From contig CAZEEI010000004.1 in NCBI GenBank assembly GCA_964511175.1, forward strand, positions 93,401 to 146,485: 53,085 bases of DNA, in the 5' to 3' direction. Origin of the DNA: an uncultured Pseudomonadales bacterium (GTDB taxonomy: Bacteria; Patescibacteriota; Microgenomatia; UBA1400; UBA1396). The notes beneath the pieces were generated by a model that searched no databases, was not told the origin of the DNA, and worked only from the letters and a program-made list of their open reading frames with translations. Shown here in pieces: positions 14,294-44,276 of this stretch. Each line of letters begins with the position of its first letter. Positions within the stretch are counted from its first letter, which is position 1. The position numbers were made by a program, and so were the translations under genes.

Positions 14294-15007
14294 TTAGTTA
14301 GAGCGGCGACGCTCTTTTTCCTCGCTAACCATCGAGGCCAGTGACTCGCACACCAAATCCTTGGCACCCAAACCGATGGCCAGGCCAATGGACAAGGCCG
14401 TAGCCAACACAAAACCGGCAAATAGAACCAAAATGAAGTCGCTGGCAATACCTAATTCGGACAAAGCAATTAGGCCAAAAATAGACAAAGTTAGATAGCT
14501 AGCTAACGTCCCAGCCAGTACGGCTTGCTGAGGAACTAAGCGCTTAAATTGTTTTTTCACTAACCGTTCAATCACCCCAGAAATTACAATGCCAAAACCA
14601 AAGACAATCAGCGCCGACAAGACCATGGGAAGATAACCTAAAATCAGCGTTACCAGGTTAGTAAACAGGGTAATACCCAGAATCTCACCAGCCACCGAAA
14701 GGAAAATCAGCATAATGATCCAAAAAATGAGGCTGGAAAAAACACCGGAGCCCTTCAACACTTGTGTAGTATCAAATAAAGCACCTAAAGGTGAATCCGC
14801 CACCGCCTTACGCCCAATTAAAGCTTTAGTGACGTGACGCACTGCAGCCGTAATGTGTCGAGCAAAAAAAACCCCTGCCAACAAAACCAGAATACTCAAA
14901 CTCAAACGCATTACCGATTCATATACGGCTACCATTTCCGTCGAATTAAGAGCAGTGGGAGAAAACCAAGTGGTTAACATAAAACCATTGTACAAACGTA
15001 TCGGCAA
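14294..15007 (-). CDS. Integral membrane protein, function unknown
   Basis: About five hydrophobic helices and a charged C-terminal tail. The ORF-track start at 15007 is a TTG. The first ATG is at 14980, directly preceded by TTGTACAAT. Confidence 0.5.
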   Translation of the reverse strand: MPIRLYNGFMLTTWFSPTALNSTEMVAVYESVMRLSLSILVLLAGVFFARHITAAVRHVTKALIGRKAVADSPLGALFDTTQVLKGSGVFSSLIFWIIMLIFLSVAGEILGITLFTNLVTLILGYLPMVLSALIVFGFGIVISGVIERLVKKQFKRLVPQQAVLAGTLASYLTLSIFGLIALSELGIASDFILVLFAGFVLATALSIGLAIGLGAKDLVCESLASMVSEEKERRRSN

Positions 15008-15021
15008 CTCGACAATAGTGA

Positions 15022-16824
15022 TTACGTAACTTGGTTAATTGCCGCACGTAGTTGAGTCCAAGTCAGGGTATTGATCACTGCCTCCGCTGGCAGCCACCCA
15101 CGCCGCGCCACCCAAACACCGTAACGCATAAAATCCAAATGAGCCACCGCGTGGGCATCGGTGTTAATAGCCAAACGGAGACCACGTTCCCGCGCTAAAC
15201 GAACCAAGGAATCGGGTAAATCCAAGCGCCAGGGCGAGGCGTTAATTTCAATAATTTTATGCTGGCGGGCACATACTTCCCAAATCTCTTCCCAATCAAA
15301 ACTCAAACCTTGCCGCTCCCGAATCAGACGACCGGTGGGGTGTCCCCAAATAGTCGCTTTAGGATGCTGAAGCGCTTGCTTGATACGACGGGTAGCGTCA
15401 CTTTTAGACTGATTAAAAGCCGAATGTATTGAAACAACCGTGTAATCCAATAAATCTAACGCTCGGTCTTCCAAAGCCAGAGAGCCATCTGGCCGAATAT
15501 CGACTTCTAAACCTTTTAGAACATAAAATTTCTTGCTGGGGTGTGTTGCTTGCCATTTTTCCAGAGCGCGGTCAATTTGTTCGTTGCGGCGTTGCACAAA
15601 CCGGTAGCGATCGGCGACAGATAAGCCAGTAGCTTTAGGTTGGTGATCGGAAATACCTAAATACTGATAACCCTTCGCCATAGCAGCGTCAAATAGCGCC
15701 GTCAACGAACTTTCACCAATGTCATGGCTGCTAGGCCAGTCCAAGTTGGAATGAAGGTGCAGGTCGCCTTTAATCATTGTTTCGTCTAACAACTGGGGCA
15801 ACTGGTGTTTTTGCGCTGCCTCAATTTCGCCAGCATCCTCCCTTAATTCCGGTGGGATGTAAGTCATACCGAGGGCTTGGTAAAAATCGGTCTCATCGGT
15901 AAAGTAATTTAAGCGCTCTCCCTTTTTGATACCATACTCGGAAAGGGAAAGACCTTTCTCTTTAGCTAAAGTACGTAAGTGAATGTTGTGTGCCTTAGAA
16001 CCGGTATAGTGCTGAAGCATACTGCCCCAACCCCGCGACTGGTGTATTTTAACGTCGACTTGTTTCCCTGAACGATGAATAAAGGAGGCGGTGTTTTCAC
16101 CTGATGCTATCCACCGCCGCACGTGATCAAACTTGTGGAGGTGAGCGAGTACAACTGCAGGATGTTCCGATTTCACACCAATATCGATATCGCCAACGGT
16201 GGCACTGCGGCGGCGCAAACTACCTAGCGCCGCTGTCTCCTTAACCGCCGGAATAGTTTGCAAAAAAGCCATTACGTCTTGAGCAATGGCGGCGGCGTCC
16301 GGTAAAAAGAGTCGCTCTTCCTCCTGAGCCGAGTGTTTTTGGGTTAGAACGCTCATTAACATTGCGGCTGTTTTGGGGCCAATTCCTTCAATTTCTGCCA
16401 ATCGACCCTGGCGCGCCGCGGTTAATAACTTTGACCGAGCCGAACGCGCTGTAGTTAGTTTTAATTCTTTGGCTAATTTAAAAGCGGTTTTGGGACCAAC
16501 CTCTGGCAAACCCAACAAAGCAAACATACCTGCCGGCAACTTTTTCTTTACTTGGTCAAAGTGTTTAACTTTACCAGTGCGGAACAACTCGTCCAAGTGG
16601 CTAGTTAGGCTTTCACCTAAACCAGCGACCTCATCCAAACGGTTCTGTTCCCACAGGTCACTTAAGTTAGCGCCCAAGTGGTCGATACTCTCCGCTGCAT
16701 TCTGGTAGGCGCGTACCCGAAAAAAATCAGCACCTTCGACCTCATAGGCAGCGGCCATATGGCGTAACTGGTCGGCTACCTGGGCGTTGGTGAAATTATG
16801 CTGGTGCGGCATAAGTATTTTCAT
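15022..16824 (-). CDS. polX: Family X DNA polymerase with C-terminal PHP phosphoesterase domain (PolX)
   Basis: N-terminal HhH repeats (..LPEVGPKTAFKL.., ..IEGIGPKTAAML..), nucleotidyltransferase GDIDI, PHP motifs (GDLHLHSNLDW, ISDH, INTDAH). Confidence 0.9.
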   Translation of the reverse strand: MKILMPHQHNFTNAQVADQLRHMAAAYEVEGADFFRVRAYQNAAESIDHLGANLSDLWEQNRLDEVAGLGESLTSHLDELFRTGKVKHFDQVKKKLPAGMFALLGLPEVGPKTAFKLAKELKLTTARSARSKLLTAARQGRLAEIEGIGPKTAAMLMSVLTQKHSAQEEERLFLPDAAAIAQDVMAFLQTIPAVKETAALGSLRRRSATVGDIDIGVKSEHPAVVLAHLHKFDHVRRWIASGENTASFIHRSGKQVDVKIHQSRGWGSMLQHYTGSKAHNIHLRTLAKEKGLSLSEYGIKKGERLNYFTDETDFYQALGMTYIPPELREDAGEIEAAQKHQLPQLLDETMIKGDLHLHSNLDWPSSHDIGESSLTALFDAAMAKGYQYLGISDHQPKATGLSVADRYRFVQRRNEQIDRALEKWQATHPSKKFYVLKGLEVDIRPDGSLALEDRALDLLDYTVVSIHSAFNQSKSDATRRIKQALQHPKATIWGHPTGRLIRERQGLSFDWEEIWEVCARQHKIIEINASPWRLDLPDSLVRLARERGLRLAINTDAHAVAHLDFMRYGVWVARRGWLPAEAVINTLTWTQLRAAINQVT

Positions 16825-16854
16825 TGTAGCTGATCATGAGCTGGACACATACTT

Positions 16855-16900
16855 CAAAACCGCCAAAACCAACAGTTGTACAATTATGATCTGGTAGAGC
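16855..16900. repeat. Copy of the TTGTACAA-centred intergenic element (between the rnpB terminator and the polX start)
   Basis: CAAAACCGCCAAAACCAACAG-TTGTACAA-TTATGATCTGGTAGAGC. The left arm matches 44181-44201. The right arm matches the reverse complement of 44240-44256. Confidence 0.6.
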
Positions 16901-16917
16901 GTTTCTCGAATACCAAA

Positions 16918-16940
16918 GCGCCGCCCGGTTAGGGCGGCGC
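16918..16940 (-). terminator. Intrinsic terminator hairpin following rnpB
   Basis: Perfect 9-bp GC stem GCGCCGCCC / GGGCGGCGC with a 5-nt loop. On the minus strand it is followed by TTTGGTATT. Confidence 0.5.
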
Positions 16941-16945
16941 GATGT

Positions 16946-17252
16946 TGTTGCTATCCCGGTAAGCCGGATTCTGTTTAGGTGTTCATTTCTCTAGGCCCGC
17001 AGCTTGATCACCCGGACCGAAGTCCAAAGGGAACGCTTCCATTATGGTGAAGGTCGGCGGTTGCGACGGAGAGGATTGCCCCCACGCGAGCGTGGTCCAC
17101 TTGGCGTTTCACCCGGCGTTACCCGGCTCGTCTCTGTGGCTCTAACTGTACCCCGATTGCTCGGGGCCCTGGCTTTGGGCCAGCATCCTGCGTTCAGTCG
17201 TCCGGACTTTCCTCACTCTGCACTAGGCAGAGCGCGAACACTTCGGGACAGC
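16946..17252 (-). ncRNA. rnpB: RNase P RNA, bacterial type A, compact (about 305 nt)
   Basis: The minus strand reads GCUGUCCC..GAGGAAAGUCCGGAC..CCACAGAGA..GGGUGAAA..GGGCCUAGAGAAAUGAAC..ACAGAAUCCGGCUUACCGGGAUAGC. These are universal P4 strands (AGGAAAGUCCGG / ACAGAAUCCGGCUUA). P1 forms between GCUGUCCC (17252-17245) and GGGAUAGC (16957-16950). Confidence 0.9.
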
Positions 17253-17258
17253 TAGAAC

Positions 17259-17264
17259 ATTATA
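17259..17264 (-). promoter_or_regulatory. -10 box of rnpB
   Basis: Minus-strand TATAAT sits 6 nt upstream of the first P1 nucleotide (G at 17252). No convincing -35. Confidence 0.45.
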
Positions 17265-17273
17265 CTACAAGTC

Positions 17274-18323
17274 CTATAACAATTTAGAGTAATCAACAAA
17301 GGGCCCTTTGTCCGGCCAAAGTTCTTTTACTATGGAGCGCACTGTAATGTAAAATGGAATAACCAATAGGGCACCCATCACTCCCAGCAAACGGAAACCA
17401 GCCAACATTAGCAAAATAGTCGTAACTGGTTTGACATCCACTGCGTCCCGCATAATCTTGGGTACAATAAAGTTGTTTTCCAACTGCTGAACTAAGATCG
17501 ACAGCAATAGTACGGCCAAACCAGCCCAGGGACTAACCAAGAAGAAAGCTACTAGCACCGCCGGTATGGCGGCAATCGTGGGACCTAGATTGGGTAGAAT
17601 CTCCAGTAAACCAGCCAGAATGGCCAATGGCAAAGCGTAGGGAATGCCCAGTAAAAACAGGCCTACTTGGGTCATCAAACCAATCACAAACATTAAGGTC
17701 AATTCGCCCCGCACCCAACTGCCCAACTGATCCTGCACTTTATGGAGCAGGAGATAAGCCTGGGTTACTTGTTCTTTTTTACTACCGGGCAAAAGCCAAG
17801 CAAATGAACCAGCCAATTCATCAAAAGAAAGTAAAAGATAAAAAGTTAAAACTAGGGTAGTAGCAAAAACAAAGAAGAAAGAAAAGGTAGAAAAAACAAT
17901 ACTCAGTAAAGTAGTAATTGAACCAGTCACCTGGCTAATAACCGAATTGTAGTCGCGGAAAGAAGTAGCTACCGTCCCCAAGTCCAATTTGGCAAAACCG
18001 TCCAGCTGGAATTCGCCAACACCAACCAAAGCAGATAGACGGGTGATTAGGAGGGCGGTCTCACCCACCAGCGGCGGAATTACTACGGAAAAGAAAACTC
18101 CCAAAACTACTAAAACCAGAATATATAAAGTAGCAATGGTAATCGGCTGAGGCACATGCCGTTTACTGGCCCAAACTACCATTGGCCGAAATGCGGAGGC
18201 CAAGATCAAACTGATAAAAAACAGCATTACCAGACCGCGTAATTGCCAGACTAAGGCAATTCCGCCAACCACACCGATCGTGGCCAAAAGGGGGGTTATA
18301 ATGGAAGCCAAGCGTAATGACAT
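17274..18323 (-). CDS. AI-2E family transporter (PerM/YhhT-like permease)
   Basis: Eight-helix permease pattern with ..LGSWVRGELTLMFVIGLMT..LLEILPNLGPTIAAIPAVLVAF.. Start placed at MSLRLASIITP (18323). The ORF is open to 18425 but that would overlap trmD. Confidence 0.75.
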   Translation of the reverse strand: MSLRLASIITPLLATIGVVGGIALVWQLRGLVMLFFISLILASAFRPMVVWASKRHVPQPITIATLYILVLVVLGVFFSVVIPPLVGETALLITRLSALVGVGEFQLDGFAKLDLGTVATSFRDYNSVISQVTGSITTLLSIVFSTFSFFFVFATTLVLTFYLLLSFDELAGSFAWLLPGSKKEQVTQAYLLLHKVQDQLGSWVRGELTLMFVIGLMTQVGLFLLGIPYALPLAILAGLLEILPNLGPTIAAIPAVLVAFFLVSPWAGLAVLLLSILVQQLENNFIVPKIMRDAVDVKPVTTILLMLAGFRLLGVMGALLVIPFYITVRSIVKELWPDKGPFVDYSKLL

Positions 18324-18339
18324 AGGATCAGTATACAAC

Positions 18340-18996
18340 ATGTTACAAATTGATATTATCACCCTTTTTCCCGAATATTTTGCCAGCCAACTATCGACCA
18401 GTCTGCTGGGCAAAGCAATCACCAACCAAAAAGTAGCGGTTGCCGTGCATGGCTTGCGGGAGTTCGGCGTGGGTAAACATCAATTAACTGATGACCGCCC
18501 GTTTGGCGGCGGTGCCGGCATGGTCATGCTTGTAGAACCTATCGATCAGGCTTTAAGTAGTCTGGGCTATCAAGTCGGCACTAAAAATGAATTGATTTGG
18601 CTAACCTCAGCTAAGGGCCAACTTTTTACCCAAGATCAGGCGCGGCAGGCCGCTAACTTACAACGTCTCTGCTTAATTTGTGGTCATTATGAAGGTGTTG
18701 ATGAACGAGTTGCTCAGTATTTGGTCGATGCGGAAGTGCGGATTGGCGATTATGTTCTTACTGGTGGTGAACCAGCGGCAGCCGTGATCACGGATGCAGT
18801 TGCCCGTCTACAACCAGGTGTGCTGGGCAATGCCAGCAGTCTTCAAGGTGAATCCCATCAGCAACCGGGTGAGTTAGGACACGCCCAATACTCGCGGCCG
18901 GCACAGTACCACGGCTGGACAGTACCGGAAATTTTACTAAGCGGCGATCACACGGCGATCACGGACTTTCGCCAAAAACAACACCGTTCCAGTTAG
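18340..18996 (+). CDS. trmD: tRNA (guanine37-N1)-methyltransferase
   Basis: MLQIDIITLFPEYF.., DDRPFGGGAGMVM, ICGHYEGVDERV, IGDYVLTGGE. The ORF-track start at 18280 adds 20 non-homologous residues. Confidence 0.9.
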   Translation: MLQIDIITLFPEYFASQLSTSLLGKAITNQKVAVAVHGLREFGVGKHQLTDDRPFGGGAGMVMLVEPIDQALSSLGYQVGTKNELIWLTSAKGQLFTQDQARQAANLQRLCLICGHYEGVDERVAQYLVDAEVRIGDYVLTGGEPAAAVITDAVARLQPGVLGNASSLQGESHQQPGELGHAQYSRPAQYHGWTVPEILLSGDHTAITDFRQKQHRSS

Positions 18997-19409
18997 CGCC
19001 GATTCTGTTCTTGAAGTACGGTAGCATCCTGCAAATCCAGAGTGAAATCGACTGGTGGAAAAGAAAGTTCGGTTTGGCCAGGATCGGCCAATTCGATGTC
19101 GGCTTGAAGTAAAGCAAAGCGCCGCTCCAACTCACTAACTACCAGTGGTGAAGGGGATGGCGTCGGCGTAGCTAAAACCTGCGCTTGTTTATCGGTGCTG
19201 CGGTTGATTAACATCAACCCTACTACCGCCAAAATTAACAAGAGGGCAATCAGTCCCGACAGAACTTTAATCCACCGCGGCGGCGCTGGTTTGACTGCGG
19301 TAGTGGCCTCGGCCGAAACCGAAGTAGAAGGTAAAACCACCGACTCTTCACCAAAAAAAGTTTGGTCTAGGTCTTCTACAGCCGGTATTTGAGGATTAGT
19401 TTGTTTCAT
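18993..19409 (-). CDS. Membrane-anchored protein, function unknown
   Basis: 138 aa with one central TM helix (WIKVLSGLIALLLILAVVGLMLI). 4-nt overlaps with the upstream gene and with trmD's end. Confidence 0.5.
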   Translation of the reverse strand: MKQTNPQIPAVEDLDQTFFGEESVVLPSTSVSAEATTAVKPAPPRWIKVLSGLIALLLILAVVGLMLINRSTDKQAQVLATPTPSPSPLVVSELERRFALLQADIELADPGQTELSFPPVDFTLDLQDATVLQEQNRR

Positions 19410-20257
19410 AAACCCTTCGCTGTCTCCTGCAAAAATGAATCAGCTTGGCGCAACTCCAGATAAACCGGTTCTACCTCACTTTGAAAAGAACGATAATTCT
19501 GGTCGGTTAGAGAACCGCGATCCACTAACTGGCGGTATTTAACTAAGGCTACGTTTAAACTATCGGCAGCGTTCTGTAAAAGACGATCTGCCTCCTGTAA
19601 ACCCCGTTGTTTAATTGCCCGGTCGGCAGCGGAAATCTGAGCTGTCTCAACCATGGTTGCCAAGTCTTTTTGCAGGAGATTGGCAGTATCGATCGCCGTT
19701 TGTAATTGGCCAATCTTCACAATCTCGAGGGAGGCGTAGGCCGTGGTAAGAAAAGTACCTTTGGCGTCATTAAGCAGCACCAAGTGATCATTAATAGCGG
19801 CACGCGTATCCAATCCCGGAATTTGCTCTTGGTAAGTGGTTAGTTGGGAGAGAAGCCCGGCCACTAAATTCAGCACTCTTTCTTTGTCGACCAACTCGGC
19901 GCCCCTAATTTGTAAAACCGAAAGATGCAGGTAAGTAAGGTAGATCCGCAGTAATTCAGCACGGGCAGTCATCACGTCTTTACCACGGCGAATCGCTTCA
20001 TCTTGGGCGGCTAACGTATTCAATTGATAGTAAGTTTGTTGGGCAATAAGATATTTTTCCACGCTATCGCGGTAGGTCTCTACGGCGGCAAAATATTGGC
20101 GGGTAGTTTGCTCCACTAAGGTTGAATCAACGGTAATATCACTTACTACTGGGGTGGCTTCCTGCGTGGGTGATTGCGCCCGTACCAAACCTGACTCAGA
20201 TAAAACGAGTGGTAAAAACAAAAAGGCACCAATTAGCCAACCAGCAAAACGACGCAT
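19406..20257 (-). CDS. Secreted alpha-helical protein, function unknown
   Basis: Signal peptide MRRFAGWLIGAFLFLPLVLSESGLVRAQ followed by heptad-like helical sequence. Confidence 0.55.
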   Translation of the reverse strand: MRRFAGWLIGAFLFLPLVLSESGLVRAQSPTQEATPVVSDITVDSTLVEQTTRQYFAAVETYRDSVEKYLIAQQTYYQLNTLAAQDEAIRRGKDVMTARAELLRIYLTYLHLSVLQIRGAELVDKERVLNLVAGLLSQLTTYQEQIPGLDTRAAINDHLVLLNDAKGTFLTTAYASLEIVKIGQLQTAIDTANLLQKDLATMVETAQISAADRAIKQRGLQEADRLLQNAADSLNVALVKYRQLVDRGSLTDQNYRSFQSEVEPVYLELRQADSFLQETAKGL

Positions 20258-20332
20258 ATTAATCTGAGTTTAGCAAATAAAAATATCTGGTACCAGCCGC
20301 CGTCTTTGTTATAATACAGTTCGATATATTAA

Positions 20333-21674: not shown

Positions 21675-21688
21675 ATGCGTTAAGGTTA

Positions 21689-23089: not shown

Positions 23090-23090
23090 T

Positions 23091-23327: not shown

Positions 23328-23338
23328 ATTCTTTAACC

Positions 23339-24049: not shown

Positions 24050-24061
24050 TCTGCTTGGTTT

Positions 24062-24134
24062 GGCCCCATCGTCTAGAGGCCTAGGACGGCAGGTTCTCAT
24101 CCTGCAAACCGCGATTCGAATTCGCGTGGGGTCA
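24062..24134 (+). tRNA. tRNA-Glu (anticodon CUC)
   Basis: Cloverleaf folded by hand. Acceptor GGCCCCA/TGGGGTC, D-arm GTCT..GGAC, anticodon stem GCAGG/CCTGC with loop TTCTCAT, T-arm CGCGA-TTCGAAT-TCGCG, discriminator A. CCA is not encoded. Confidence 0.9.
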
Positions 24135-28862: not shown

Positions 28863-29351
28863 TTATTCCTCAATCTGTAAATCGATCAGTTCGTTGCCTT
28901 TTTCGTAGACAGCTCGATAGGAAATAATCCTTTTGTTGTCTGAAAAAAGATGGGGGATAATTTCCTTAATCTCCGCCAACATATTTTCTTTTTCCAACAT
29001 TTCTGCCGGAGATAACCAAACCAGTTCGCCGTCCTCCGGTTCCGGCATGACTTCGCCGCCAGCATAATCGGCTTCCACAAAATGGAAGAAAAATTCTTGA
29101 TCGAGGTCTTGCAGATAAGCGTTGCCCGTGGCTATCACTCTCAGGTTTTTAATATCCAAACCAGTTTCTTCTTTAATTTCCCTGCGGGCGCAAGCAAATA
29201 ATCCCTCATTAAACTCCCGGTGTCCGCCTGGAGCCATCCATACGTCCGGCATAATTCTTTTGCCGGGGTTGCGATGTAACATAAGGTACTTGCCGTCCTT
29301 TTTCACAAAACATTCCAGGGTTACGGCGATATTTCTTTTCTTGGTAGCCAT
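28863..29351 (-). CDS. NUDIX hydrolase with intact Nudix box
   Basis: GGHREFNEGLFACARREIKEETGL fits GX5EX7REUXEEXGU exactly. Start set at MATKKRNIAV.. (SD-like AAAGGGA upstream), avoiding overlap with the upstream gene. Confidence 0.85.
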   Translation of the reverse strand: MATKKRNIAVTLECFVKKDGKYLMLHRNPGKRIMPDVWMAPGGHREFNEGLFACARREIKEETGLDIKNLRVIATGNAYLQDLDQEFFFHFVEADYAGGEVMPEPEDGELVWLSPAEMLEKENMLAEIKEIIPHLFSDNKRIISYRAVYEKGNELIDLQIEE

Positions 29352-29373
29352 AGTCCCTTTATACAGCATTTCT

Positions 29374-30006
29374 TTACTTAATTTCCACATACCGGTACAA
29401 AGCGGCGGGGCGATGCGAGACATTCTTCTGAATCCTAGCTACTTTTTTCACCACTCCGGAATCTAAAATCTTCTTACGGAAATTCCGATTATCCATCTTC
29501 TCTTGCTTAATTACTTCATATACCATCTGCAGGTTATTCAAAGTAAAGTAACGCGGCAAAAATTGCTTAGCAAACTGGTGATCTAAATTTTGCTGTAGAT
29601 AGACAAAAGCCAGATCGATAATTTCTTGGTGATCGAATGCTAATTTTGGCAACTGCCCGATTTCCTGAAAATTGGCGACGTTGGTCACTTTATCTTCCGG
29701 AAGCAAGGCAATGAAAGCGATTGATACTGTTCTCATCCGCGGATCGCGTCGGGGATTAGTGAAGGTATAAAACTGCTCAAAAAAGACATCGCTCATGCCG
29801 GTTACATCCCGCAGTTTCCTGGACAATGTCTCTTCCGCCGTTTCTTGCGCCAGCAATAAACCGCCGGGAAGTTCGGCCAAACCCTGGTAGGGCTCTTTTT
29901 CTCTCGTGTTTAAGTAAACCAATAATTTTCGGTCTTTGATGGTAAAAATGACGGCGTCCACGGCAATTCGTCCTTTTTCGTAATTAGGCTGGTGAGAATT
30001 TGGCAT
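29374..30006 (-). CDS. NrtR-like Nudix-related transcriptional regulator (degenerate Nudix domain plus C-terminal winged helix)
   Basis: The Nudix box is degenerate (GGLLLAQETAEETLSRKLRDVTGM: RE becomes RK, EE becomes DV). The C-terminus FTLNNLQMVYEVIKQEKMDNRNFRKKILDSG..SHRPAALYRY matches the NrtR wHTH signature (FTL..LQ..YE.I....D.RNFR.K...HRPA.LY). Confidence 0.75.
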   Translation of the reverse strand: MPNSHQPNYEKGRIAVDAVIFTIKDRKLLVYLNTREKEPYQGLAELPGGLLLAQETAEETLSRKLRDVTGMSDVFFEQFYTFTNPRRDPRMRTVSIAFIALLPEDKVTNVANFQEIGQLPKLAFDHQEIIDLAFVYLQQNLDHQFAKQFLPRYFTLNNLQMVYEVIKQEKMDNRNFRKKILDSGVVKKVARIQKNVSHRPAALYRYVEIK

Positions 30007-30014
30007 ATCCCGTT

Positions 30015-30023
30015 ATTGTAGCA
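30015..30023 (-). promoter_or_regulatory. Extended -10 element (TGcTACAAT) 8 nt upstream of the NrtR-like ATG
   Basis: Minus strand TGCTACAAT-aacgggat-ATG. There is no room for a Shine-Dalgarno sequence, which implies a leaderless or near-leaderless mRNA. Confidence 0.45.
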
Positions 30024-30046
30024 CACTTAACGTATAAAACACGCTA

Positions 30047-30074
30047 TTGACAAGCGGGGTGACATTGGTACGAT
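30047..30074 (+). promoter_or_regulatory. Sigma-70 promoter for the divergent gene at 30120
   Basis: TTGACA (30047-30052), 16-nt spacer, TACGAT (30069-30074). SD AAAGGTGG precedes ATG 30120. Confidence 0.5.
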
Positions 30075-30119
30075 TACCTTGCTTAACGTAATAAATAAGC
30101 TAAGTAAGAAAGGTGGTTT

Positions 30120-32818: not shown

Positions 32819-33802
32819 GTGGCTCACCAAAACTATTTTGTCTTCCAAGCTGACTCTAATTACGACCTAGGCTACCGCATGGGCATTGAGTTTGCCCAAG
32901 AAGCTCAGAGCTCTCTCCAACACGCTAAAACCAAAAATTGGACATCCCGATACGCTACTAGCCAAAAGATTTTAGCAATTACCCAATTACATTTCCCGCA
33001 ATATATCGAAGAAATGCAGGGTTATGCGGCCGGGGCAAAAGTTGATTTTTACGATTTGTGGGTATTGAGTATTGAGTCCGATGCCGAAATAAATCGCGCT
33101 AGTGCTAAATGTACTAACGTAATCACTAACAGTGGCAAGCTCATCGGCCATAATGAAGATGCTTTGGAACCAGGAATGGCCGATACGGTTTGTGTGGTTA
33201 AGAAAACGATCAAGGACCTAACCACCTTAGAAATTTGTTACTACAACACGCTGGGAGGGAACTCGGTTGGCATCAGCTCTTACGGTTATATACACGCCTT
33301 AAACACTCTATTATTCACTGATAACCAGATTGGTATCCCGAAAAACGTTATCGCTCGTTATCTATTGGACAGCCAAAATCCAGATGAAGCAATCCGTACC
33401 ATTCTCGCTTTACCCAGGGCTTCTGGTTACAACCACAACATTGTGAGTCGAAATGGCCAGATTTGGAATTTGGAACTCACCGCTAACGATGGAATCGTGA
33501 CGCATCCTCAACTGCCTTTTGTCCACACCAATCACTGCCTTAATCTGCCGTCAGACTTTAACGACGACCACGGCACTATTAGTCGGTTGGAGTTTGCGCG
33601 CCAGCATGTTCAGGACCGTATGAGCGTGGATCAACTCCAGCAGTTACAAGAAGATGTCTCCCAAGGGCCGAACAATAGTGTGTTTAACGAAAGAACCATT
33701 GGCAAAATAATAGTCGATTTCACAGCGATGACCGCCTACATTTGGCTGCTAAGGGAAAAGCAGCTAGGCTGGGTAAGCTATCCGCTGGATTTTATTGTTT
33801 AA
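32819..33802 (+). CDS. Peptidase C45 family acyltransferase/hydrolase (Ntn-type)
   Basis: ..SAKCTNVITNSGKLIGHNEDA.. (nucleophile Cys context and N.D motif) and ..GYNHNI.., at a length typical of the family. GTG start. Confidence 0.6.
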   Translation: MAHQNYFVFQADSNYDLGYRMGIEFAQEAQSSLQHAKTKNWTSRYATSQKILAITQLHFPQYIEEMQGYAAGAKVDFYDLWVLSIESDAEINRASAKCTNVITNSGKLIGHNEDALEPGMADTVCVVKKTIKDLTTLEICYYNTLGGNSVGISSYGYIHALNTLLFTDNQIGIPKNVIARYLLDSQNPDEAIRTILALPRASGYNHNIVSRNGQIWNLELTANDGIVTHPQLPFVHTNHCLNLPSDFNDDHGTISRLEFARQHVQDRMSVDQLQQLQEDVSQGPNNSVFNERTIGKIIVDFTAMTAYIWLLREKQLGWVSYPLDFIV

Positions 33803-34485: not shown

Positions 34486-35002
34486 AACTTGCTCCTCTTA
34501 ACTGCTTTTAAACCGCATTCTAGCATAGCTGTAATGATCGAAATAGTTAAATCCCGTGTTACAATCCCCAGCGATATACGATTTATGACTTCGTCCGAAA
34601 CACCAACCTCTAATTCTCAACCAGAGCTACCGGATGAGCTTTTCTGGCGCAGAATATTTATCATGAAAGCCTTAGCGCGACATCTGGGCTGGCCTGGTCG
34701 GTGGGCACTGATTAAGAAGGAACGAGCCGAAAAAGCGCAACCAACCAAAAAGTTGCGTTAAGTTGGCCACTGATTGTATTATTAAGAAAGATGGTTCCCA
34801 ACCCCAACCCACCGCCTACCTTTATACCACCGGTTGCCAAATCAACACCGACCAACCATTCTGTGCTTCCTGACGATCCTAAGAAAAAACCGCCCCATCA
34901 GCAGATTATTACCTTTATTACCCGCTTTTGGCGGGGGAGAACGGTAAGATAACCATCAGCATTCGACTAGTCGGCATTTTCAAATCAGGTTAAGATAGGT
35001 TT

Positions 35003-37861: not shown

Positions 37862-37935
37862 TGCCCTTCCATATACTGGTAGTGTAGTACATAGTTTAGA
37901 GTTCTACCACTAATCAAAATCACTAAAATTGGTAA

Positions 37936-38008
37936 TTGTACAAAAGGGCCACTTGTTTTGTACAAAAACACCCGTCAAATTGTACAACTTTCGATTTTGC
38001 GGTTTTTG
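37936..38008. promoter_or_regulatory. Array of three TTGTACAA palindromes at exact 22-bp spacing, plus a conserved arm
   Basis: Cores at 37936-37943, 37958-37965 and 37980-37987. 37980-38008 (TTGTACAACTTTCGATTTTGCGGTTTTTG) is a reverse-complement copy of the arm seen at 44181-44209 and 16855-16883. Confidence 0.5.
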
Positions 38009-38044
38009 ATACACGCGGAGAGGGGGGTGAAGAGTCGAATAACC

Positions 38045-38722: not shown

Positions 38723-38767
38723 AGACCATCATGGTACCAAATAATCGAGTTCTGTGTTGGGGAGATA

Positions 38768-38801
38768 GTGGAAACCCGGCCAGAGGCCGGGTTGTTTCCA
38801 C
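38768..38801 (-). terminator. Hairpin downstream of the RRM protein gene
   Basis: GTGGAAAC-CCGGCC / GGCCGG-GTT-GTTTCCAC long GC-rich stem. No clear U-tract on the minus strand. Confidence 0.4.
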
Positions 38802-38821
38802 TCTTAATGACTAAGGGTTAC

Positions 38822-39208
38822 TTAGTGATCACGTCGGTAGCTAGGCTTGTTGCCGTAACCACCGCGTCCACCACCGAAGCCGCCGCGGCTACCGCCGCCA
38901 AAGCCACCACGATCACCACCGCCAAATTGGCGAGGTGCTGGGGGACGAGCCACGTTGACGACTAAAGCGCGGCCGTCTAATTCGACACCGTTAACCGCTT
39001 CGATCGCCTTCTGGGCGTCTTCTTCATTAACAAACTCGACAAAGGCGATGCCTTTGGAACGACCGGTAACCCGATCGATAATGAGTTTGATCTCACGAAT
39101 CTCGCCGTGAGGGGCGAACAGCTCTTCCAGCTGTTGTTCCGTGGCACTGTACGGCAGGTTGCCGACAAACAGTTTACGCGGATTAGGTTGGGAACCGGTT
39201 TGGTCCAT
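38822..39208 (-). CDS. RRM-type RNA-binding protein with Gly/Arg-rich tail
   Basis: RNP2 LFVGNLPY, RNP1 KGIAFVEF, C-terminal GGGDRGGFGGGSRGGFGGGRGG. Confidence 0.9.
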   Translation of the reverse strand: MDQTGSQPNPRKLFVGNLPYSATEQQLEELFAPHGEIREIKLIIDRVTGRSKGIAFVEFVNEEDAQKAIEAVNGVELDGRALVVNVARPPAPRQFGGGDRGGFGGGSRGGFGGGRGGYGNKPSYRRDH

Positions 39209-39351
39209 ACTTCTCCCTAGTTTCTCCCGGAATGTCCGGGTCTTTTTATGGTTTTTAGCTTAGAAACAACCACGTAATCCAGGGAGCCTGTAACCAAGGG
39301 TTTAAATTTTGGACAGACCCGTACTACAGAAATGTTCTAAAACTAAGCAGT

Positions 39352-39357
39352 ATTATA
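39352..39357 (-). promoter_or_regulatory. -10 box for the RRM protein gene
   Basis: Minus-strand TATAAT lies about 140 nt upstream of the ATG, with a weak -35 (TTAGTG) at 17-nt spacing. Confidence 0.35.
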
Positions 39358-39376
39358 GCACGCCAACGTTAAAACA

Positions 39377-40528
39377 CTAAGCTTTAGTCGAATTTGGCCA
39401 AGTAAATTGAGTTCCCTTAAAGTCGCGGAAACCTTTATTAAAATCAACCCACCAAGCATTGCCCTCCGGTATGGGAATCTTGCCATAACCCTGCGGCACA
39501 TCAATTACAAATCTGGCAGTGGCCGCCACACCAGACAAACGCGGCCGGAGTTTGCGCCAAATCTTAACCGCTCGTTTCAAAGGGACCGTAAAATGTTTAG
39601 CCCAGCAGACATCGTCGTTTTGGAAAACGTAGTAAGGACGGATGCCCTCCTTGGCCAAGGTTTGAAAAAGTGTGTAAAGCACCTGTTCATTATCGTTAAC
39701 TCCCTTAAGCAGTACCGTTTGAGTCAAGACCGCAGCCAGTGATTCGCGGCGAAAACGATTGAGCACAGCCAAGGCTTGCTCGGTTAGCTCAGCGGGATGG
39801 TTAACGTGCACCATTAGATAAGGATTGCGCAGTAATCCGACGGCACGGTAGTGCCAATCTTTAATACCAATCGGATTATGAATTGGGAAACGCGAACCAA
39901 TCCGGACAATATCTAGTTTACCGTCGGCCTGGCGTTTGGCCAGTCGGGACAAAATTTTCGTGAGATACGGCTCAGGCGTGGTGAGGGGATCACCGCCGGA
40001 AAGAATAATTTCGTTAATCTCGTTGTGTTTATCTAAATAAGCTTCAACCTGATCTAAATCCGCATCAGAAAGATAGGCCTTGCGCGCTAAAGCCGCACTC
40101 TGGTTTAGCGCCCCAGCACCGGTGTAACCTACTTCCCGTCCCCGCGTGCAAAACCGGCAATAACTGGAACAAAAACGGGTAACGGTCCAAAGAGCCCGAC
40201 CATAAGTGATTACCGAGCCGTCTTTACGCCGGCGGCCGCGATATTTATAAACCAAACCAGGAGCTTCCTCATGATGATCCTCATTGAGGGGATCCATAGT
40301 TTGGCGACTAAAGTATTTTCTCTCCAAGTTGGGACGCGCCACAAATTGGCGGCCAATGGGGCCATCCACTCCGCCGGTTTTAGTGATTAGTTCCCGCAAG
40401 TACAGCGAGTAAACCTCTGGCAAACCGCCATGCGGCAAACTAACCGCGGGACCACGCGGAATCAATTTGGCTTTTGGCAGCTGAGCTAAAGGAGGTTCGT
40501 CAGAACTAGCAGTTGAATCAGATTCCAT
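39377..40528 (-). CDS. KamA family radical SAM protein (lysine 2,3-aminomutase / EpmB-like)
   Basis: CSSYCRFCTRG (CxxxCxxC), ..ILSGGDPL.., ..VHVNHPAEL.., ..TVLLKGVND.. family motifs. Confidence 0.85.
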   Translation of the reverse strand: MESDSTASSDEPPLAQLPKAKLIPRGPAVSLPHGGLPEVYSLYLRELITKTGGVDGPIGRQFVARPNLERKYFSRQTMDPLNEDHHEEAPGLVYKYRGRRRKDGSVITYGRALWTVTRFCSSYCRFCTRGREVGYTGAGALNQSAALARKAYLSDADLDQVEAYLDKHNEINEIILSGGDPLTTPEPYLTKILSRLAKRQADGKLDIVRIGSRFPIHNPIGIKDWHYRAVGLLRNPYLMVHVNHPAELTEQALAVLNRFRRESLAAVLTQTVLLKGVNDNEQVLYTLFQTLAKEGIRPYYVFQNDDVCWAKHFTVPLKRAVKIWRKLRPRLSGVAATARFVIDVPQGYGKIPIPEGNAWWVDFNKGFRDFKGTQFTWPNSTKA

Positions 40529-40631
40529 ATTTATTTTGGTTCCAGTACTAAATTAACGCGTCAACTATTATTGCAAATTGACAGCAATGTACAAGTAGTA
40601 AAAATAACGACAACGAAAATTATTTGATCTT

Positions 40632-40640
40632 TGCTACAAT
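40632..40640 (+). promoter_or_regulatory. Extended -10 element (TGcTACAAT) 9 nt upstream of the rfbC ATG
   Basis: TGCTACAAT-gggcgcaat-ATG, with no SD possible. Confidence 0.45.
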
Positions 40641-40649
40641 GGGCGCAAT

Positions 40650-41204
40650 ATGCAGCACGATTTTCAGTTTCAACCCACCCCTTTAGCCGGTTTAACCCTC
40701 ATCCAGCCCAAGTTGGCCAAAGACGAGCGGGGATTTTTCTTAGAAGACTATCACCGCCAAATTTTTGCCGACCACGGCATCGACGCTACCTTTGTGCAGG
40801 ATAACCACTCCCATTCCAGCCGTGGTGTTTTGCGCGGTTTGCACTTTCAGCGTGCACCCATGGCTCAGGATAAACTGATTCGGGTAGTTGGCGGCGAAGC
40901 CTATGACGTGGTGGTTGATATCCGGCCAGATTCACCCACTTACGGTCAATCATTTGGTGTACATCTTTCGGCCGAGAACAAACAAATGATGTTTATCCCT
41001 CAAGGTTTTGCCCACGGCTTCTTGGTACTGAGCGACACGGTCGATTTCCTCTATAAGGTAAGCAATTATTATTCGCCCGAACATGAGGCTGGCTTGTTGT
41101 GGAATGACCCCGACCTGAATATTAACTGGCCCATTGCCGAGCCGCTACTTTCGGCCAAGGATCAACGTCATCCCCGTCTGCGTGAACTAAACCGAAAGGA
41201 GTAA
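40650..41204 (+). CDS. rfbC: dTDP-4-dehydrorhamnose 3,5-epimerase
   Basis: ..DERGFFLE..FVQDNHSHSSRGVLRGLHFQ..KLIRVVGGEAYDVVVDIR..IPQGFAHGF.. canonical RmlC. Confidence 0.9.
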   Translation: MQHDFQFQPTPLAGLTLIQPKLAKDERGFFLEDYHRQIFADHGIDATFVQDNHSHSSRGVLRGLHFQRAPMAQDKLIRVVGGEAYDVVVDIRPDSPTYGQSFGVHLSAENKQMMFIPQGFAHGFLVLSDTVDFLYKVSNYYSPEHEAGLLWNDPDLNINWPIAEPLLSAKDQRHPRLRELNRKE

Positions 41205-41205
41205 G

Positions 41206-41508
41206 ATGAATCTCATCTTCCAATCGCGTCACGTCGAGCTCACCCCGGAGCTCCAGGAGTTTGTGACTAAGCAGCTTGAGGAACTGGAGCGGCACCAGTA
41301 CCGGCTAGATGGAGTCACGGTCACTACAGACCGTATTGAGAAAAAAAAGAATGATCCCGGCGCTAACCAAGTTACCCTCCTGGCTGATGTACCCGGTGAA
41401 AATGTGGTTATTACTTACCGCGCGGTAGACCTTAAGACGGCTCTCACTGGGGCAGTGGAGCGGTTGGACCGAGCACTACGCAAAACCAAAGAAAAGCGGT
41501 TGCCTTAG
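41206..41508 (+). CDS. hpf: Ribosome hibernation promoting factor / RaiA family (short form)
   Basis: 100 aa, MNLIFQSRHVELTPELQEFVTKQLEELER.. S30AE-type beta-alpha-beta-beta-beta-alpha pattern. Confidence 0.75.
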   Translation: MNLIFQSRHVELTPELQEFVTKQLEELERHQYRLDGVTVTTDRIEKKKNDPGANQVTLLADVPGENVVITYRAVDLKTALTGAVERLDRALRKTKEKRLP

Positions 41509-41544
41509 TCTGAGATCCGCTCTCAATTAAGATATAATGACGAC

Positions 41545-42663
41545 ATGGAAAATGAGCTTTTACCCAGGCGTTTGAGTATTCGCCGTGTGGTGGTTTCGAT
41601 TGCCTTGGGCGTGACCATGTTTGTGTTTGGTTTTGGTCTGCGCGGCCTAATCACTAAATCTGCCACCAGCTACCAATTGCTAACGCCACTAGGAGAAAAA
41701 ACACCAGAGGCACCGGCCAATCCCTATTTGCCTTTTCGCTTCAGCGCATTGCGTTCGCTGATTTTGTCACCGGAACCAATCACTATTTTGGGGGTGCTGG
41801 ATCAGTCACAGCCCAGTTACCACTCCTTCCTGGTTGCCTGGGATGTACCTAATTTAGAAACCAAACAAAAGGACCGCGTTACCGGTCAGTTGAATATTCC
41901 CACGGGTGAGGGTCCCTTTCCCGCCATCGTGATGCTACGCGGCTACGTGGAGCGGGAAGAGTACCGTACCGGCACCGGCACCCGCAATGCGGCGGCGGCA
42001 TTCGCCCAGAATGGTTTTGTGACGATCGCGCCGGATTTTTTGGGCTACGGCGGTAGCGACGCCGAGTCTAGTGACGTCCTAATCGCCCGTTTTGCTAAAC
42101 CACTGACAGTTCTCCAATTATTGACTGACCTCAAGTCCGGCGAACTACAACTTGATCCTGACCTGACTGCCGATCCTCTGCCGACCGTACGCAACATTAT
42201 CGACCAGTCCCGGCTTGGTTTGTGGGCTCACAGTAACGGCGGTCAAATTGCCTTATCCGTGCTGGAAATAACCAGCCAAGTTTTGCCGACCAGTCTCTGG
42301 GCACCGGTTTCCCAATCTTTCCCTTACAACGTGCTCTACTACAGCAACGATGCCGAGGATCAGGGTCGATACCTACGACAACAATTAGCCAATTTTGAGT
42401 TCACGCTGGACAATGATCCCGCCGAGTGGTCAGCCCTTACCGAACCTAGCCGTATTCTGGCTCCCCTCCAAATCCACCAAGGCGGACGTGACGACGCCGT
42501 GCCATTAGCTTGGTCGGAGCAATTGACCGCCAAACTGGAGGCCGCCACGGTCTCGGCTAAGTTGTATACTTACCCCCAAGCCGATCACAATCTCCAACCA
42601 GATTGGTCGACGGCTGTCCAACGTGACCTGCAATTTTTTGCGCGCCACCTCAAAAATAATTAA
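41545..42663 (+). CDS. Alpha/beta hydrolase, S9 prolyl-oligopeptidase-like, membrane anchored
   Basis: N-terminal TM helix, nucleophile elbow GLWAHSNGG, ..HQGGRDDAVP.. (Asp), ..ADHNL (His). Confidence 0.7.
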   Translation: MENELLPRRLSIRRVVVSIALGVTMFVFGFGLRGLITKSATSYQLLTPLGEKTPEAPANPYLPFRFSALRSLILSPEPITILGVLDQSQPSYHSFLVAWDVPNLETKQKDRVTGQLNIPTGEGPFPAIVMLRGYVEREEYRTGTGTRNAAAAFAQNGFVTIAPDFLGYGGSDAESSDVLIARFAKPLTVLQLLTDLKSGELQLDPDLTADPLPTVRNIIDQSRLGLWAHSNGGQIALSVLEITSQVLPTSLWAPVSQSFPYNVLYYSNDAEDQGRYLRQQLANFEFTLDNDPAEWSALTEPSRILAPLQIHQGGRDDAVPLAWSEQLTAKLEAATVSAKLYTYPQADHNLQPDWSTAVQRDLQFFARHLKNN

Positions 42664-42675
42664 GTTAAGGAACCT

Positions 42676-43746
42676 ATGACCGATCCTCGCTACACCAGGC
42701 TAGCCGAAATCCTGGTTCAGCAATGTATGGCTGTTAAACCGAATGAACACATTTGGCTACGGGCCACTTCGCCAGCTGCCCTGCCGCTCAGTCGGGAAGT
42801 ATATAAACAAATTGTTTTGGTTGGCGCCCACCCACTTTATGACTTAGCCGATGACCAGGTGACTGCTTTTTTCTATAAACACGCTACGCCTGCGCAATTA
42901 AACCACCACCCGGACATCATGGAGTTCACGGCCAACCTGGCCGACAAAACCATTACGATTGTTGGCGAACAAAATAAGCGCGAACTAGCCGGTGCGGATC
43001 CTAAGAAACTGCTGGAGCGTTCGCGGCTCCTGAAAAGCGTCAAAGATATTATTATGGCCAAGCCTTGGGTCTTAACCTATGTACCCACCCACGGCATGGC
43101 CCAAGACGCTAATCTTTCCTTGGATGAATTTGAGGAATTTTATTTTGGCGCCACCAACCGCGATTGGCAGGAAATCGAGACCCGGATGCAAAAACTGGCG
43201 GACCGCCTTAACCAGGCTAAAACCCTGCGCATCCAGGGTGTGAAAACCGATCTCACCCTGTCGGTGGCCGGCCACCACTGGATTGCCGACGACTGGAAAG
43301 CTAATATGCCAGGTGGTGAAGTTTTTACCTCGCCGACGGCCGATTCGGTGGAAGGGGAGGTGTACTTTAACTTCCCACTCCTACATGACGGTAAATTAAT
43401 GCGCGATATCCACTTGTTCTTTGAACGCGGCAGGGTAGTGAAGGCTACCGCCAGTGAAAACGAGGCCTACCTTAACCACTTGTTAGATACCGATGAAGAT
43501 GCGCGTCACTTGGGTGAAGTTGCTTTTGGCGGCAACCCAGGCATTACCAACTACATGCTCAATATGCTGTTTGACGAAAAAATGGCTGGCACGATGCATT
43601 TAGCACTGGGTCAAGGATTTGCCGAATGCGGCGGGGAAACCTCCTCGGCTCTGCACTTGGATATCGTCAAGGACATGAGTGCGCCGGGATCCAAAGTTAC
43701 TTTGGATGGGGAAGACTTTCTGGATGAGGGAAAGTTCGTGATCTGA
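42676..43746 (+). CDS. M29 family aminopeptidase (AmpS/PepS-like)
   Basis: Length and motifs (..PGGEVFTSP.., ..GEVAFGGNPGI.., ..HLALGQGF.., ..HLDIV) typical of thermophilic metalloprotease M29. Confidence 0.8.
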   Translation: MTDPRYTRLAEILVQQCMAVKPNEHIWLRATSPAALPLSREVYKQIVLVGAHPLYDLADDQVTAFFYKHATPAQLNHHPDIMEFTANLADKTITIVGEQNKRELAGADPKKLLERSRLLKSVKDIIMAKPWVLTYVPTHGMAQDANLSLDEFEEFYFGATNRDWQEIETRMQKLADRLNQAKTLRIQGVKTDLTLSVAGHHWIADDWKANMPGGEVFTSPTADSVEGEVYFNFPLLHDGKLMRDIHLFFERGRVVKATASENEAYLNHLLDTDEDARHLGEVAFGGNPGITNYMLNMLFDEKMAGTMHLALGQGFAECGGETSSALHLDIVKDMSAPGSKVTLDGEDFLDEGKFVI

Positions 43747-43751
43747 CTCAG

Positions 43752-44141
43752 TTAGCTTAAAAAAAGTAGTTTCGTACCAGGAAAATGCGTATCCAAAAAC
43801 TTAAACGTTTCTTCACCTTCCGAAAAATCACTTTTTGCGTAGTAAAAAATCCCTCGTTTGTAATGGAGTCGGCCAAACTCGATAACGGGCTCAACTCCAT
43901 TCCTGACAGATATGCCCCGCCAGGCGGTTGGTAAAATGTCGGAGTGGGTGTAAATATCAGAATCACCGAAAGCTAGCTGTGTCTCAACACCATTAGTGAC
44001 CAAAGCAAAACGCCAAACCACATCTTCGTCCTGAAGCATGCCGATCGTTTGATGATTGAGTAAACGGATCTGTCCAGCATTCTGCTCAGCTCTATCAACT
44101 AAAGAAACGTGCGTCTCTAAAGGTTCAGCTACACGCGACAT
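43752..44141 (-). CDS. Hypothetical protein (129 aa)
   Basis: ORF preceded by an extended -10. No family recognised. Confidence 0.45.
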   Translation of the reverse strand: MSRVAEPLETHVSLVDRAEQNAGQIRLLNHQTIGMLQDEDVVWRFALVTNGVETQLAFGDSDIYTHSDILPTAWRGISVRNGVEPVIEFGRLHYKRGIFYYAKSDFSEGEETFKFLDTHFPGTKLLFLS

Positions 44142-44150
44142 ATAGGCGAA

Positions 44151-44159
44151 ATTCTAGCA
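44151..44159 (-). promoter_or_regulatory. Extended -10 element (TGcTAGAAT) 9 nt upstream of ATG 44141
   Basis: Minus strand TGCTAGAAT-ttcgcctat-ATG, with no SD possible. Confidence 0.4.
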
Positions 44160-44180
44160 TATGCCGAGGTGGCGATATAT

Positions 44181-44276
44181 CAAAAACCGTAAAACCAACA
44201 GTTGTACAACTTACCTCAAGTACAGTCTCAACCGAAAAGGCTCCACCAGATCATAGTTGTACAACTATCGGTTTTG
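44181..44276. repeat. Inverted pair of TTGTACAA-centred elements
   Basis: CAAAAACCGTAAAACCAACAGTTGTACAAC (44181-44210) and GTTGTACAACTATCGGTTTTG (44256-44276) face each other. Both cores are the perfect 12-mer AGTTGTACAACT, 55 bp centre to centre. Confidence 0.55.

Follow-up and report, generated by a model that had tools for sequence, protein, structure and literature searches.

Palindromes with a TGTACA core are proven operators of the dimeric repressor YefM, an example being the Escherichia coli L repeat TCATTGTACAATGA, and in the YefM-YoeB and Axe-Txe systems paired TGTACA boxes are spaced 12 bp centre to centre, lie at most 80 bp from the antitoxin start and overlap the -10 element (PMC1802561). 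Palindromic sites of another kind, the hix and gix sites of the Din family, are 26 bp long, with a 2-bp core between two inverted half-sites of 12 bp each (PMC3241671), and TIGR-Tas arrays are made of ∼36-nt tandem units with UG...CCA boxes adjoining a Nop-domain Tas gene (PMC12045711). In this work we describe a family of short intergenic elements built around the palindrome TTGTACAA in a 53,085-nt stretch of DNA from an uncultured bacterium (GTDB lineage Patescibacteriota; Microgenomatia; UBA1400; UBA1396; GenBank assembly GCA_964511175.1, contig CAZEEI010000004.1, positions 93,401 to 146,485), which we call the window. Genomes of the candidate phyla radiation (CPR)/Patescibacteria are tiny, gene-dense, and nearly repeat-free, and to our knowledge their cis-regulatory DNA and non-autonomous mobile elements have hardly been described. 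The family would offer one of the few ways into the transcriptional regulation of an uncultivated lineage, or be a sign of active miniature mobile DNA. We found that the family is real: its cores are more constrained than their flanks, helically phased, and exclusively intergenic, and its extended units are lineage-specific. Judged by their homology the units are related by descent, and we infer that the core is bound by a protein, that binding has a regulatory consequence, and by what route the units were copied.

The seven copies of TTGTACAA listed in a preliminary description of this DNA (14988, 16876, 37936, 37958, 37980, 44202, and 44257) are exact, compared with 1.31 expected, and none of 100 dinucleotide-preserving shuffles reached that number. 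When one mismatch was allowed, 24 copies were observed versus 28.4 expected, a chance-level count, and the enrichment is thus confined to the exact core. All seven copies fall in the intergenic 6.4% of the window (a share based on a gene map that combines the open reading frame (ORF) list, Pfam matches, and gene calls on matching public contigs), which bears out within the window the intergenic-over-coding enrichment that the preliminary description had put forward for checking. The full palindrome is 12 nt, AGTTGTACAACT, with AATTGTACAA as the other form. Apart from the copy at 14988, which is discussed below, the family has six cores in three spacers, each spacer flanked by genes on the same strand. 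A TGTACA at 40588 and the remaining intergenic GTAC palindromes were rejected as members since their flanks are unlike those of the family.

Three of the six cores form a phased array in the spacer between a DedA gene (upstream) and the gene of a 70-aa membrane protein (downstream), both on the minus strand. The extended unit c3 lies directly downstream of the DedA stop codon and is followed by two bare cores; the cores at 37936, 37958, and 37980 are perfect 8-mers with a spacing of exactly 22 bp. The 14-nt spacers between them are random-like, with 1-4 of 14 positions identical. Perfect 8-mers separated by unlike spacers argue that the array is no recent tandem duplication and that the 8-mer and the two-turn phase would each be maintained. 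A core and a phase so maintained point to a site that is recognised by a protein, with cooperative binding along one helix face, and they are the strongest such sign in the family.

The other line of evidence comes from the four extended units, c1 to c4 (Table 1). The 21-nt motif AAAAYCRAHAGTTGTACAAYT matched the window four times with up to three mismatches (16865+, 44191+, 44255-, and 37978-) versus 0.00 expected, and the second arm TATGATCTGGTRGAGC was found in the window at 16885+ and 44240- only, so that the conservation of flanking DNA claimed earlier holds. All four units carry the 10-nt AGTTGTACAA unchanged, whereas their arms are ∼75-85% identical; the unit consensus reads (GGYGGCG)...TRTATCMAAAnssnYAAAAYCRAHAG-TTGTACAA-YT, and similarity fades gradually away from the core with no abrupt end. 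Homology reaches 51 nt at 82% identity (16854-16904 vs. 44236-44286) and 35 nt at 86% (37977-38011 vs. 44178-44212), a further pair shares 32 nt at 81%, and the arms of the inverted doublet formed by c2 and c4 share 34 nt at 76%, extendable to ∼45 nt, with 43 nt between them. The four units are the longest non-coding repeats of the window, and an nhmmer profile built from them matched only these four (E 1e-8 to 1e-10) in the window and ∼60 kb of relatives' DNA, with no match in the latter.

Different pairs of units share different stretches, and the homology is thus mosaic: the second arm (∼30 nt beyond the core) is common to c1 and c4, the arms of c2 and c3 are closest to each other, and c2 and c4 share a distal AGGTGGCG, a pattern that suggests copying and not convergent evolution of sites. 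Because the second arm is present in two units only, it would not be required for a common function, and its 82% conservation suggests common descent by copying. The single-unit regions (c1, c3, and the bare cores) did not fold significantly better than shuffled sequences (z -1.2 to -2.2), and a single core palindrome gives a stem of 4 bp at most. As for target-site duplications, reading of the sequence gave a 4-nt ATAC around c1 only and nothing around the doublet. A fifth candidate unit at 32911-32945 (66%) is located within a coding region and was judged a chance match. The second-arm stretch CTGGTAGAGCG, which resembles a tRNA D-arm, was also considered as a tRNA fragment and rejected: it has no tRNA-like fold, and ARAGORN found only a tRNA-Glu at 24062.

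Table 1. Coordinates of the palindromic units, bare cores, and adjoining features (window positions).
Feature	Position	Strand	Remarks
Sigma-70 promoter of mechanosensitive (MS)-channel-like gene	14987..15015	-	TTGTCG, 17-nt spacer, TACAAT, GGTTTT, leaderless ATG 14980
PolX -10 box TACAAT	16823..16828	-	near-leaderless start
Unit c1	16846..16913	+	arm CAAAACCGCCAAAACCAACAG 16855-16875; core AGTTGTACAATT 16874-16885; second arm TATGATCTGGTAGAGC 16885-16900 and beyond
RNase P RNA (class A)	16944-17254	-	Rfam model, 109.3 bits vs. gathering score 100
Two bare TTGTACAA cores	37936..37965	.	37936-37943 and 37958-37965
Unit c3	37976..38017	-	core AATTGTACAACT 37978-37989; arm 37990-38017, reverse complement GTGTATCAAAAACCGCAAAATCGAAAG
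Orphan 129-aa ORF	43752..44141	-	adjoins doublet downstream
Promoter-like sites of orphan ORF	44151..44183	-	TTGATA (c2 arm end), 16-nt spacer, TATGCT; overlaps extended -10 box TGCTAGAAT; putative function
Unit c2, left half of doublet	44168..44213	+	AGGTGGCGATATATCAAAAACCGTAAAACCAACAGTTGTACAACT
Unit c4, right half of doublet	44227..44300	-	second arm, core 44255-44266, diverged arm reaching stop codon of 77-aa gene
Inverted doublet c2+c4	44168..44300	.	∼133 nt; arms 34-45 nt; cores 55 bp apart (∼five turns)

Unit c1 sits between the terminator of the RNase P RNA gene and the -10 box of PolX, both genes being on the minus strand, and its core centre is ∼63 bp upstream of the inferred PolX transcription start. 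The gene order TrmD, AI-2E transporter, RNase P RNA, PolX, MS channel, UppP, ComM is retained in two relatives (loci L042 and L043). PolX homologues are at most 61% identical, the named ones being from Chisholmbacteria or Woesebacteria (∼50%). A box matching that of PolX is present in both relatives (TACAAT in L042 and TTCAAT in L043), and there the RNase P terminator leads directly into the box, TTTTTGGATACAATGGTTTCATG. The end of the RNase P RNA and the start of PolX are 131 nt apart in the window versus ∼55-64 nt in L042 and L043, and it is the extra DNA that holds c1. Regarding the RNase P RNA itself, the L042 orthologue scored below the Rfam threshold though it is homologous by eye, and CPR RNase P RNAs are at the edge of the Rfam model.

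The doublet lies between the gene of a 77-aa membrane protein (upstream) and the orphan 129-aa ORF (downstream), both of which are minus-strand genes. Its two halves could pair in a long hairpin of -44.3 kcal/mol (z -6.3) on the plus strand and -64.3 kcal/mol (z -6.95) on the minus strand. Relative to the inferred start at the -10 box of the orphan ORF (TGCTAGAAT or TATGCT, 44161-44151), the core of c2 is located near -56 to -62 and that of c4 near -112 to -117. The synteny of this region (hydrolase, M29 peptidase, converging small gene, DUF3048, winged helix-turn-helix (wHTH) gene, SecDF) is retained in the relatives' loci L058, L059, and L061; in L065 the M29 gene is further upstream and the hydrolase gene abuts the small gene. 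The gap before the small gene ranges from an overlap up to 165 nt in the four relatives versus 553 nt in the window, where it holds the orphan ORF and the doublet. The orphan ORF is absent at the syntenic position in all four relatives, and it had no homologues among 5.8 billion proteins; its phmmer matches were weak and confined to the repeats of large beta-helix proteins, and its AlphaFold2 model (pLDDT 36) is unusable. We rejected it on these grounds as a regulator or transposase; either the gene is very young, or the ORF is spurious and part of inserted DNA. An inversion switch between the doublet cores was also rejected, as the breaks of public contigs described below (44256/44247) do not fit the geometry of an inversion and the 43-nt spacer is too short. 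The upstream 77-aa protein (44300-44533, minus strand) has a basic N-terminus and a C-terminal transmembrane helix, and it is conserved in the relatives, where its gene encodes 76-90 aa and is in every case divergent from the DUF3048 gene; the gene is small and uncharacterised, but real.

Both comparable loci thus show c1 and the doublet in DNA that is extra relative to the relatives, which are distant (61-85% amino-acid identity), so that precise empty sites are not definable. No dispersed repeat of a comparable kind was found in 79 kb from relatives. In L059 the gap before the small gene contains a hairpin-capable palindrome, TGTACATATGTACA, downstream of the orthologous small gene; it has no homology to the window loci beyond the hexamer and folds no better than shuffles (z -0.5), and it is a weak hint that TGTACA palindromes may matter in the clade. 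Beyond these relatives, the 21-nt motif gave 15 single matches in genome contigs (185,579 species-representative genomes) and 24 in JGI metagenome contigs, all of which we attribute to chance as their flanks are unrelated; a looser pattern gave 10 single matches in viral contigs, whose flanks were not inspected. The doublet had no blastn match in plasmid and phage collections. With Rfam 15 the gathering score was reached by the RNase P RNA only, the doublet and DedA spacers giving no match at E<=1 and the PolX spacer only noise. On this evidence the family appears private to this lineage.

Public Logan assemblies of two runs contain the same organism at 100% identity. Their contigs are unbroken across the PolX and DedA spacers, but at the doublet the left contig stops at window position 44256 in both runs and the right contig begins at 44247. 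With k = 31, these breaks mean that the missing k-mers are exactly those within 44227-44276 (50 nt). The 50-nt segment CTCAACCGAAAAGGCTCCACCAGATCATAGTTGTACAACTATCGGTTTTG is therefore likely to be present elsewhere in the sample with other flanks, since a second, identical copy leaves this break pattern in a de Bruijn assembly; the same breaks would result from a co-occurring strain with differences on both sides. As c1 is only ∼76% identical to this segment, the other copy would be outside the window. The practical effect is that the repeat splits short-read assemblies at this locus in two public datasets. Another Logan contig of the same organism stops at ∼51501, inside a 12-nt-period tandem repeat (51455-51718) that encodes a Pro-Thr-rich linker within a 586-aa gene; a homologous repeat with an 18-nt period is present in L058 (15635-15808).

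The invariance of the core, the random-like spacers, and the helical phasing suggest a dimeric DNA-binding protein, and the long mosaic homology suggests spread by duplication or mobilisation. We tentatively favor, with somewhat less than even confidence, the interpretation that the core is a binding site for a dimeric protein, carried on a module of 35-65 nt that was copied, in the fashion of miniature inverted-repeat transposable elements (MITEs), upstream of a few genes. The module would consist of the A-tract arm TATCAAAAACCGYAAAAYCRAHAG, the core as recognition site, and an optional second arm, and copies of it, in both orientations and in one case as an inverted doublet, would have entered at least three intergenic spacers. 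The sites would be located ∼45-120 bp upstream of the -10 boxes of PolX, the 70-aa membrane protein gene, and the orphan ORF, all on one helix face (22, 22, and 55 bp), and the bound protein would modulate these genes or insulate them from the upstream gene. An intergenic palindromic core more conserved than its flanks and regularly phased at 22, 22, and 55 bp is what a set of operators would look like. The preliminary description had offered the operators of a dimeric regulator and a repeat resembling MITEs or repetitive extragenic palindromes (REPs) as separate options. The data fit the two combined: the operator option has the invariant core, strictly intergenic placement, 22-bp phase, and random spacers in its favor but does not suffice alone, and the repeat option stands as to copying (35-60-nt mosaic homology, lineage-specific insertion at two loci, and absence from relatives) but not as to the REP stem-loop, which single units lack.

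Several observations weigh against this interpretation. Comparison of orthologous loci, which the preliminary description had recommended, gave no motif at the PolX promoter of L042 or L043, so conservation at orthologous promoters, a mark of operators, is missing. No candidate binder was identified: the only regulators among ∼45 window ORFs searched with Pfam were receiver-only response regulators, an NrtR-like protein, and a PaaX-like wHTH protein. The last of these, at 45833 (45854-46429), had been suggested earlier as a possible regulator, but it is 75-85% conserved in relatives that are without the elements, and no link to them was found; nor was any found between the sites and the NrtR-like protein (29374-30006). 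The downstream genes, namely those of PolX and a small membrane protein and the orphan ORF, do not look like one regulon. Units c3 and c4 abut gene 3' ends with their arms directed away from the downstream gene, the orientation of the units is inconsistent, and homology of at least 50 nt far exceeds a normal operator footprint. Finally, the transcription start sites are guesses, and the view is limited to a 53-kb stretch of one genome.

The main rival is a purely selfish non-autonomous element, MITE-like or resembling a REPIN (a doublet of inverted REPs) with solo halves, in which the core is a transposase or recombinase site and effects on genes are incidental. We consider it possible but unlikely on balance. 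Much of what was described above suits it, namely the imperfect inverted arms and long hairpin of the doublet, the mosaic and extended homology, the location of units in lineage-specific extra DNA at both comparable loci, the contig breaks that bracket an exact 50-nt segment, the use of either orientation with units beside gene 3' ends, and the absence of the family from the relatives and public collections scanned; in addition, the arm end GGTTTTTGATA agrees at 11 of 12 positions with a Hin hix half-site, GGTTTTTGATAA. Against it, conservation is highest at the internal core and falls off with distance from it, whereas a transposed element should have sharp conserved termini, and no convincing target-site duplication was seen. 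Bare cores with random spacers in an exact 22-bp phase are unlike decaying MITE copies, only one copy is full-length, and single units lack a REP-type hairpin, their palindrome being just 12 nt. No transposase or recombinase gene was found in the window.

The cores might also be hexamers of the lineage's promoters, TTGTACAAT containing a -10 TACAAT and TTGTAC being a weak -35, so that the family would amount to duplicated promoter regions; we regard this as improbable. The copy at 14988 is exactly such a case. Its TACAAT lies 6 nt before ATG 14980, the TTGTACAA there forms the -10 region, and TGTACAAT with a 6-nt gap to the ATG also precedes the orthologous MS-channel-like gene in L042 (11816) and L043 (13059), the latter with TTGTAC, a 17-nt spacer, and TACAAT. 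This copy is without any family flank, and by its sequence and conserved geometry it is an ordinary conserved promoter and no family member. The earlier claim that the copies do not fit a sigma-70 promoter consequently fails for 14988, and for the remaining copies the matter is uncertain. A TAnAAT at proper distance from a -35 box and a gene start, conserved in orthologues, was found for 14988 only: a promoter consensus scan did pair adjacent cores of the DedA spacer as TGTACA-18-TACAAT (37964 to 37935) and gave TTGATA-16-TATGCT at the doublet (44183 to 44156), but such counts were within shuffle expectation. In the four extended units no -35 box is present 16-18 nt upstream of the core, the sequence there being AAAAAC or AAAACC, and two of the four have TACAAC, without the critical last T. 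Promoters in c1 and c2 would point away from the genes, and the perfect 12-nt palindrome and the conserved A-tract arm would be left unexplained.

The MS-channel promoter spans 14978-15015 (-) in the window, 11816-11832 in L042, and 13039-13075 in L043, where the gene call begins ∼170 nt too far upstream of the conserved ATG. The -10 boxes of PolX and the orphan ORF are 9-11 nt before the starts, which, together with the leaderless MS-channel gene, suggests that leaderless or near-leaderless mRNAs may be common in this lineage. L043 also has intrinsic terminators with GTACAA in their loops, GCCCTTGTACAAACGAGGGC and GCCCTCGTACAACCGAGGGC (805-840 and 9941-9967), and in its 21-kb locus four of five TGTACA hexamers are apparently non-coding, their positions being read against gene calls.

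That the units act at the RNA level, as terminators, mRNA-stabilising 3' hairpins, or the small-RNA family proposed earlier, is highly improbable: the minus-strand doublet fold begins where the conserved 77-aa gene has its stop codon, c3 comes after that of DedA, and the L059 palindrome is similarly downstream of a small gene, but single units, bare cores, and the L059 palindrome do not fold significantly, a core stem has only 4 bp, no U-tract follows the doublet hairpin and the scan gave no terminator-like site, no unit matched Rfam, and orientation to neighbouring genes is inconsistent. At best the promoter-only and RNA-level explanations cover parts of the data.

A bolder version of the favored interpretation, which we consider doubtful, is that a miniature mobile CPR module spreads sites for a TGTACA-recognising dimeric protein and rewires promoters such as that of PolX in real time. 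The protein might be Phd/YefM-like or of the ribbon-helix-helix (RHH) type, recruited from a toxin-antitoxin or mobile-element context. If true, this would mean active growth of a regulon by transposition in an ultra-small genome otherwise without repeats.

A few other features of the window deserve mention. The genes znuA and that of an HhH-GPD glycosylase diverge from a 50-nt spacer with a near-perfect palindrome at 3196-3213, TATGTACTAGTACACTA (core GTACTAGTAC), which is a candidate operator of the Zur type; the ZnuABC transporter is encoded at 731-3187 on the minus strand. The NrtR-like regulator (Nudix plus NrtR winged-helix; minus strand) adjoins a Nudix hydrolase in the region 28863-30119, and in the spacer upstream of it CTTAACGTA is repeated directly, at ∼30027 and ∼30090. 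The wHTH protein (plus strand) is a weak PaaX-like match whose C-terminal domain is labelled nucleotidyltransferase by some sources; it is 57-85% identical across Microgenomates (more than 2,500 relatives), and its gene directly precedes secD-secF, both in the window and in all of the relatives' loci compared. Two gaps without a called gene are unusually long for the genome: 30450-30783 (334 nt), with an extended -10 box TGATACAAT and a candidate ∼57-aa ORF preceded by AAGGAG, and 34486-35002 (517 nt), with an ORF listed at 34489-34761.

We compared the family with the known systems. In sequence, the closest precedent for the core is YefM-YoeB, with which it shares the TGTACA centre and multiple adjacent palindromes; unlike there, the spacings are 22 and 55 bp, the sites are ∼45-120 bp upstream, and no Phd, YefM, or YoeB domain was found in the adjacent or other window ORFs. 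In geometry, it resembles MetJ metboxes and operators of the Arc/CopG-type RHH proteins, in which short (8-12 bp) perfect palindromes are repeated at whole helical turns for cooperative binding, but here no RHH gene was identified and the sites are at unrelated genes within long homologous flanks. The hix resemblance concerns the right half-site of Hin, matched by the c2 and c3 arm ends (PMC3241671), and the corresponding stretch of c4, CATTTGGATAC, resembles the gix half-site GGTTTTGGATAA. In contrast to hix and gix, a full 12-2-12 inverted site is missing, as the sequence next to the half-site is a T-tract repeat in direct orientation, no central AA or GA dinucleotide is present in context, 43 nt between inverted units is too short for an invertase synapse, and no serine recombinase or resolvase domain was found in the window. 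A TIGR-Tas array was rejected for the DedA spacer, where the period is 22 nt, three units carry no box motifs, and the neighbours encode an M23 peptidase, the 70-aa protein, and DedA. The motifs of LexA, CRP/FNR, NrtR (GT-N7-AC), EbfC (GTnAC), SlmA, the DnaA box, integration host factor (IHF), sigma-54, and extracytoplasmic function (ECF) sigma factors were also considered, and none fits by reading of the sequence.

The differences and similarities to MITEs, enterobacterial repetitive intergenic consensus (ERIC) sequences, Correia elements, and bacterial interspersed mosaic elements (BIMEs)/REPINs concern the family as a whole. Unlike this class, it is most conserved at an internal 12-nt palindrome and not at its termini, it shows no clear target-site duplication and no cognate transposase or RAYT gene in the window, and it includes an array of bare cores with unrelated spacers. 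The stem-loop of a REP unit is not seen, since only the 12-nt core is palindromic (z -1.2 to -2.2), whereas the long hairpin of an inverted REPIN doublet is found at c2+c4; likewise, terminal inverted repeats around a short non-coding body are present in the doublet, the other loci having half units only. As for copy number, four units are present in 53 kb and at least one more is inferred. Like members of the class, which are ∼35-150 nt, the family is short, strictly intergenic, dispersed, and lineage-specific, and it occurs in either orientation as solo halves or hairpin-forming inverted doublets. Elements of this class in gene spacers can supply promoter or terminator parts and protein-binding sites, and the family is similarly placed. 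We concluded that the family is best seen as an addition to a known class, that of short intergenic repeats which are dispersed and bear a protein-binding palindrome; the biology is of a familiar type and leaves current ideas standing.

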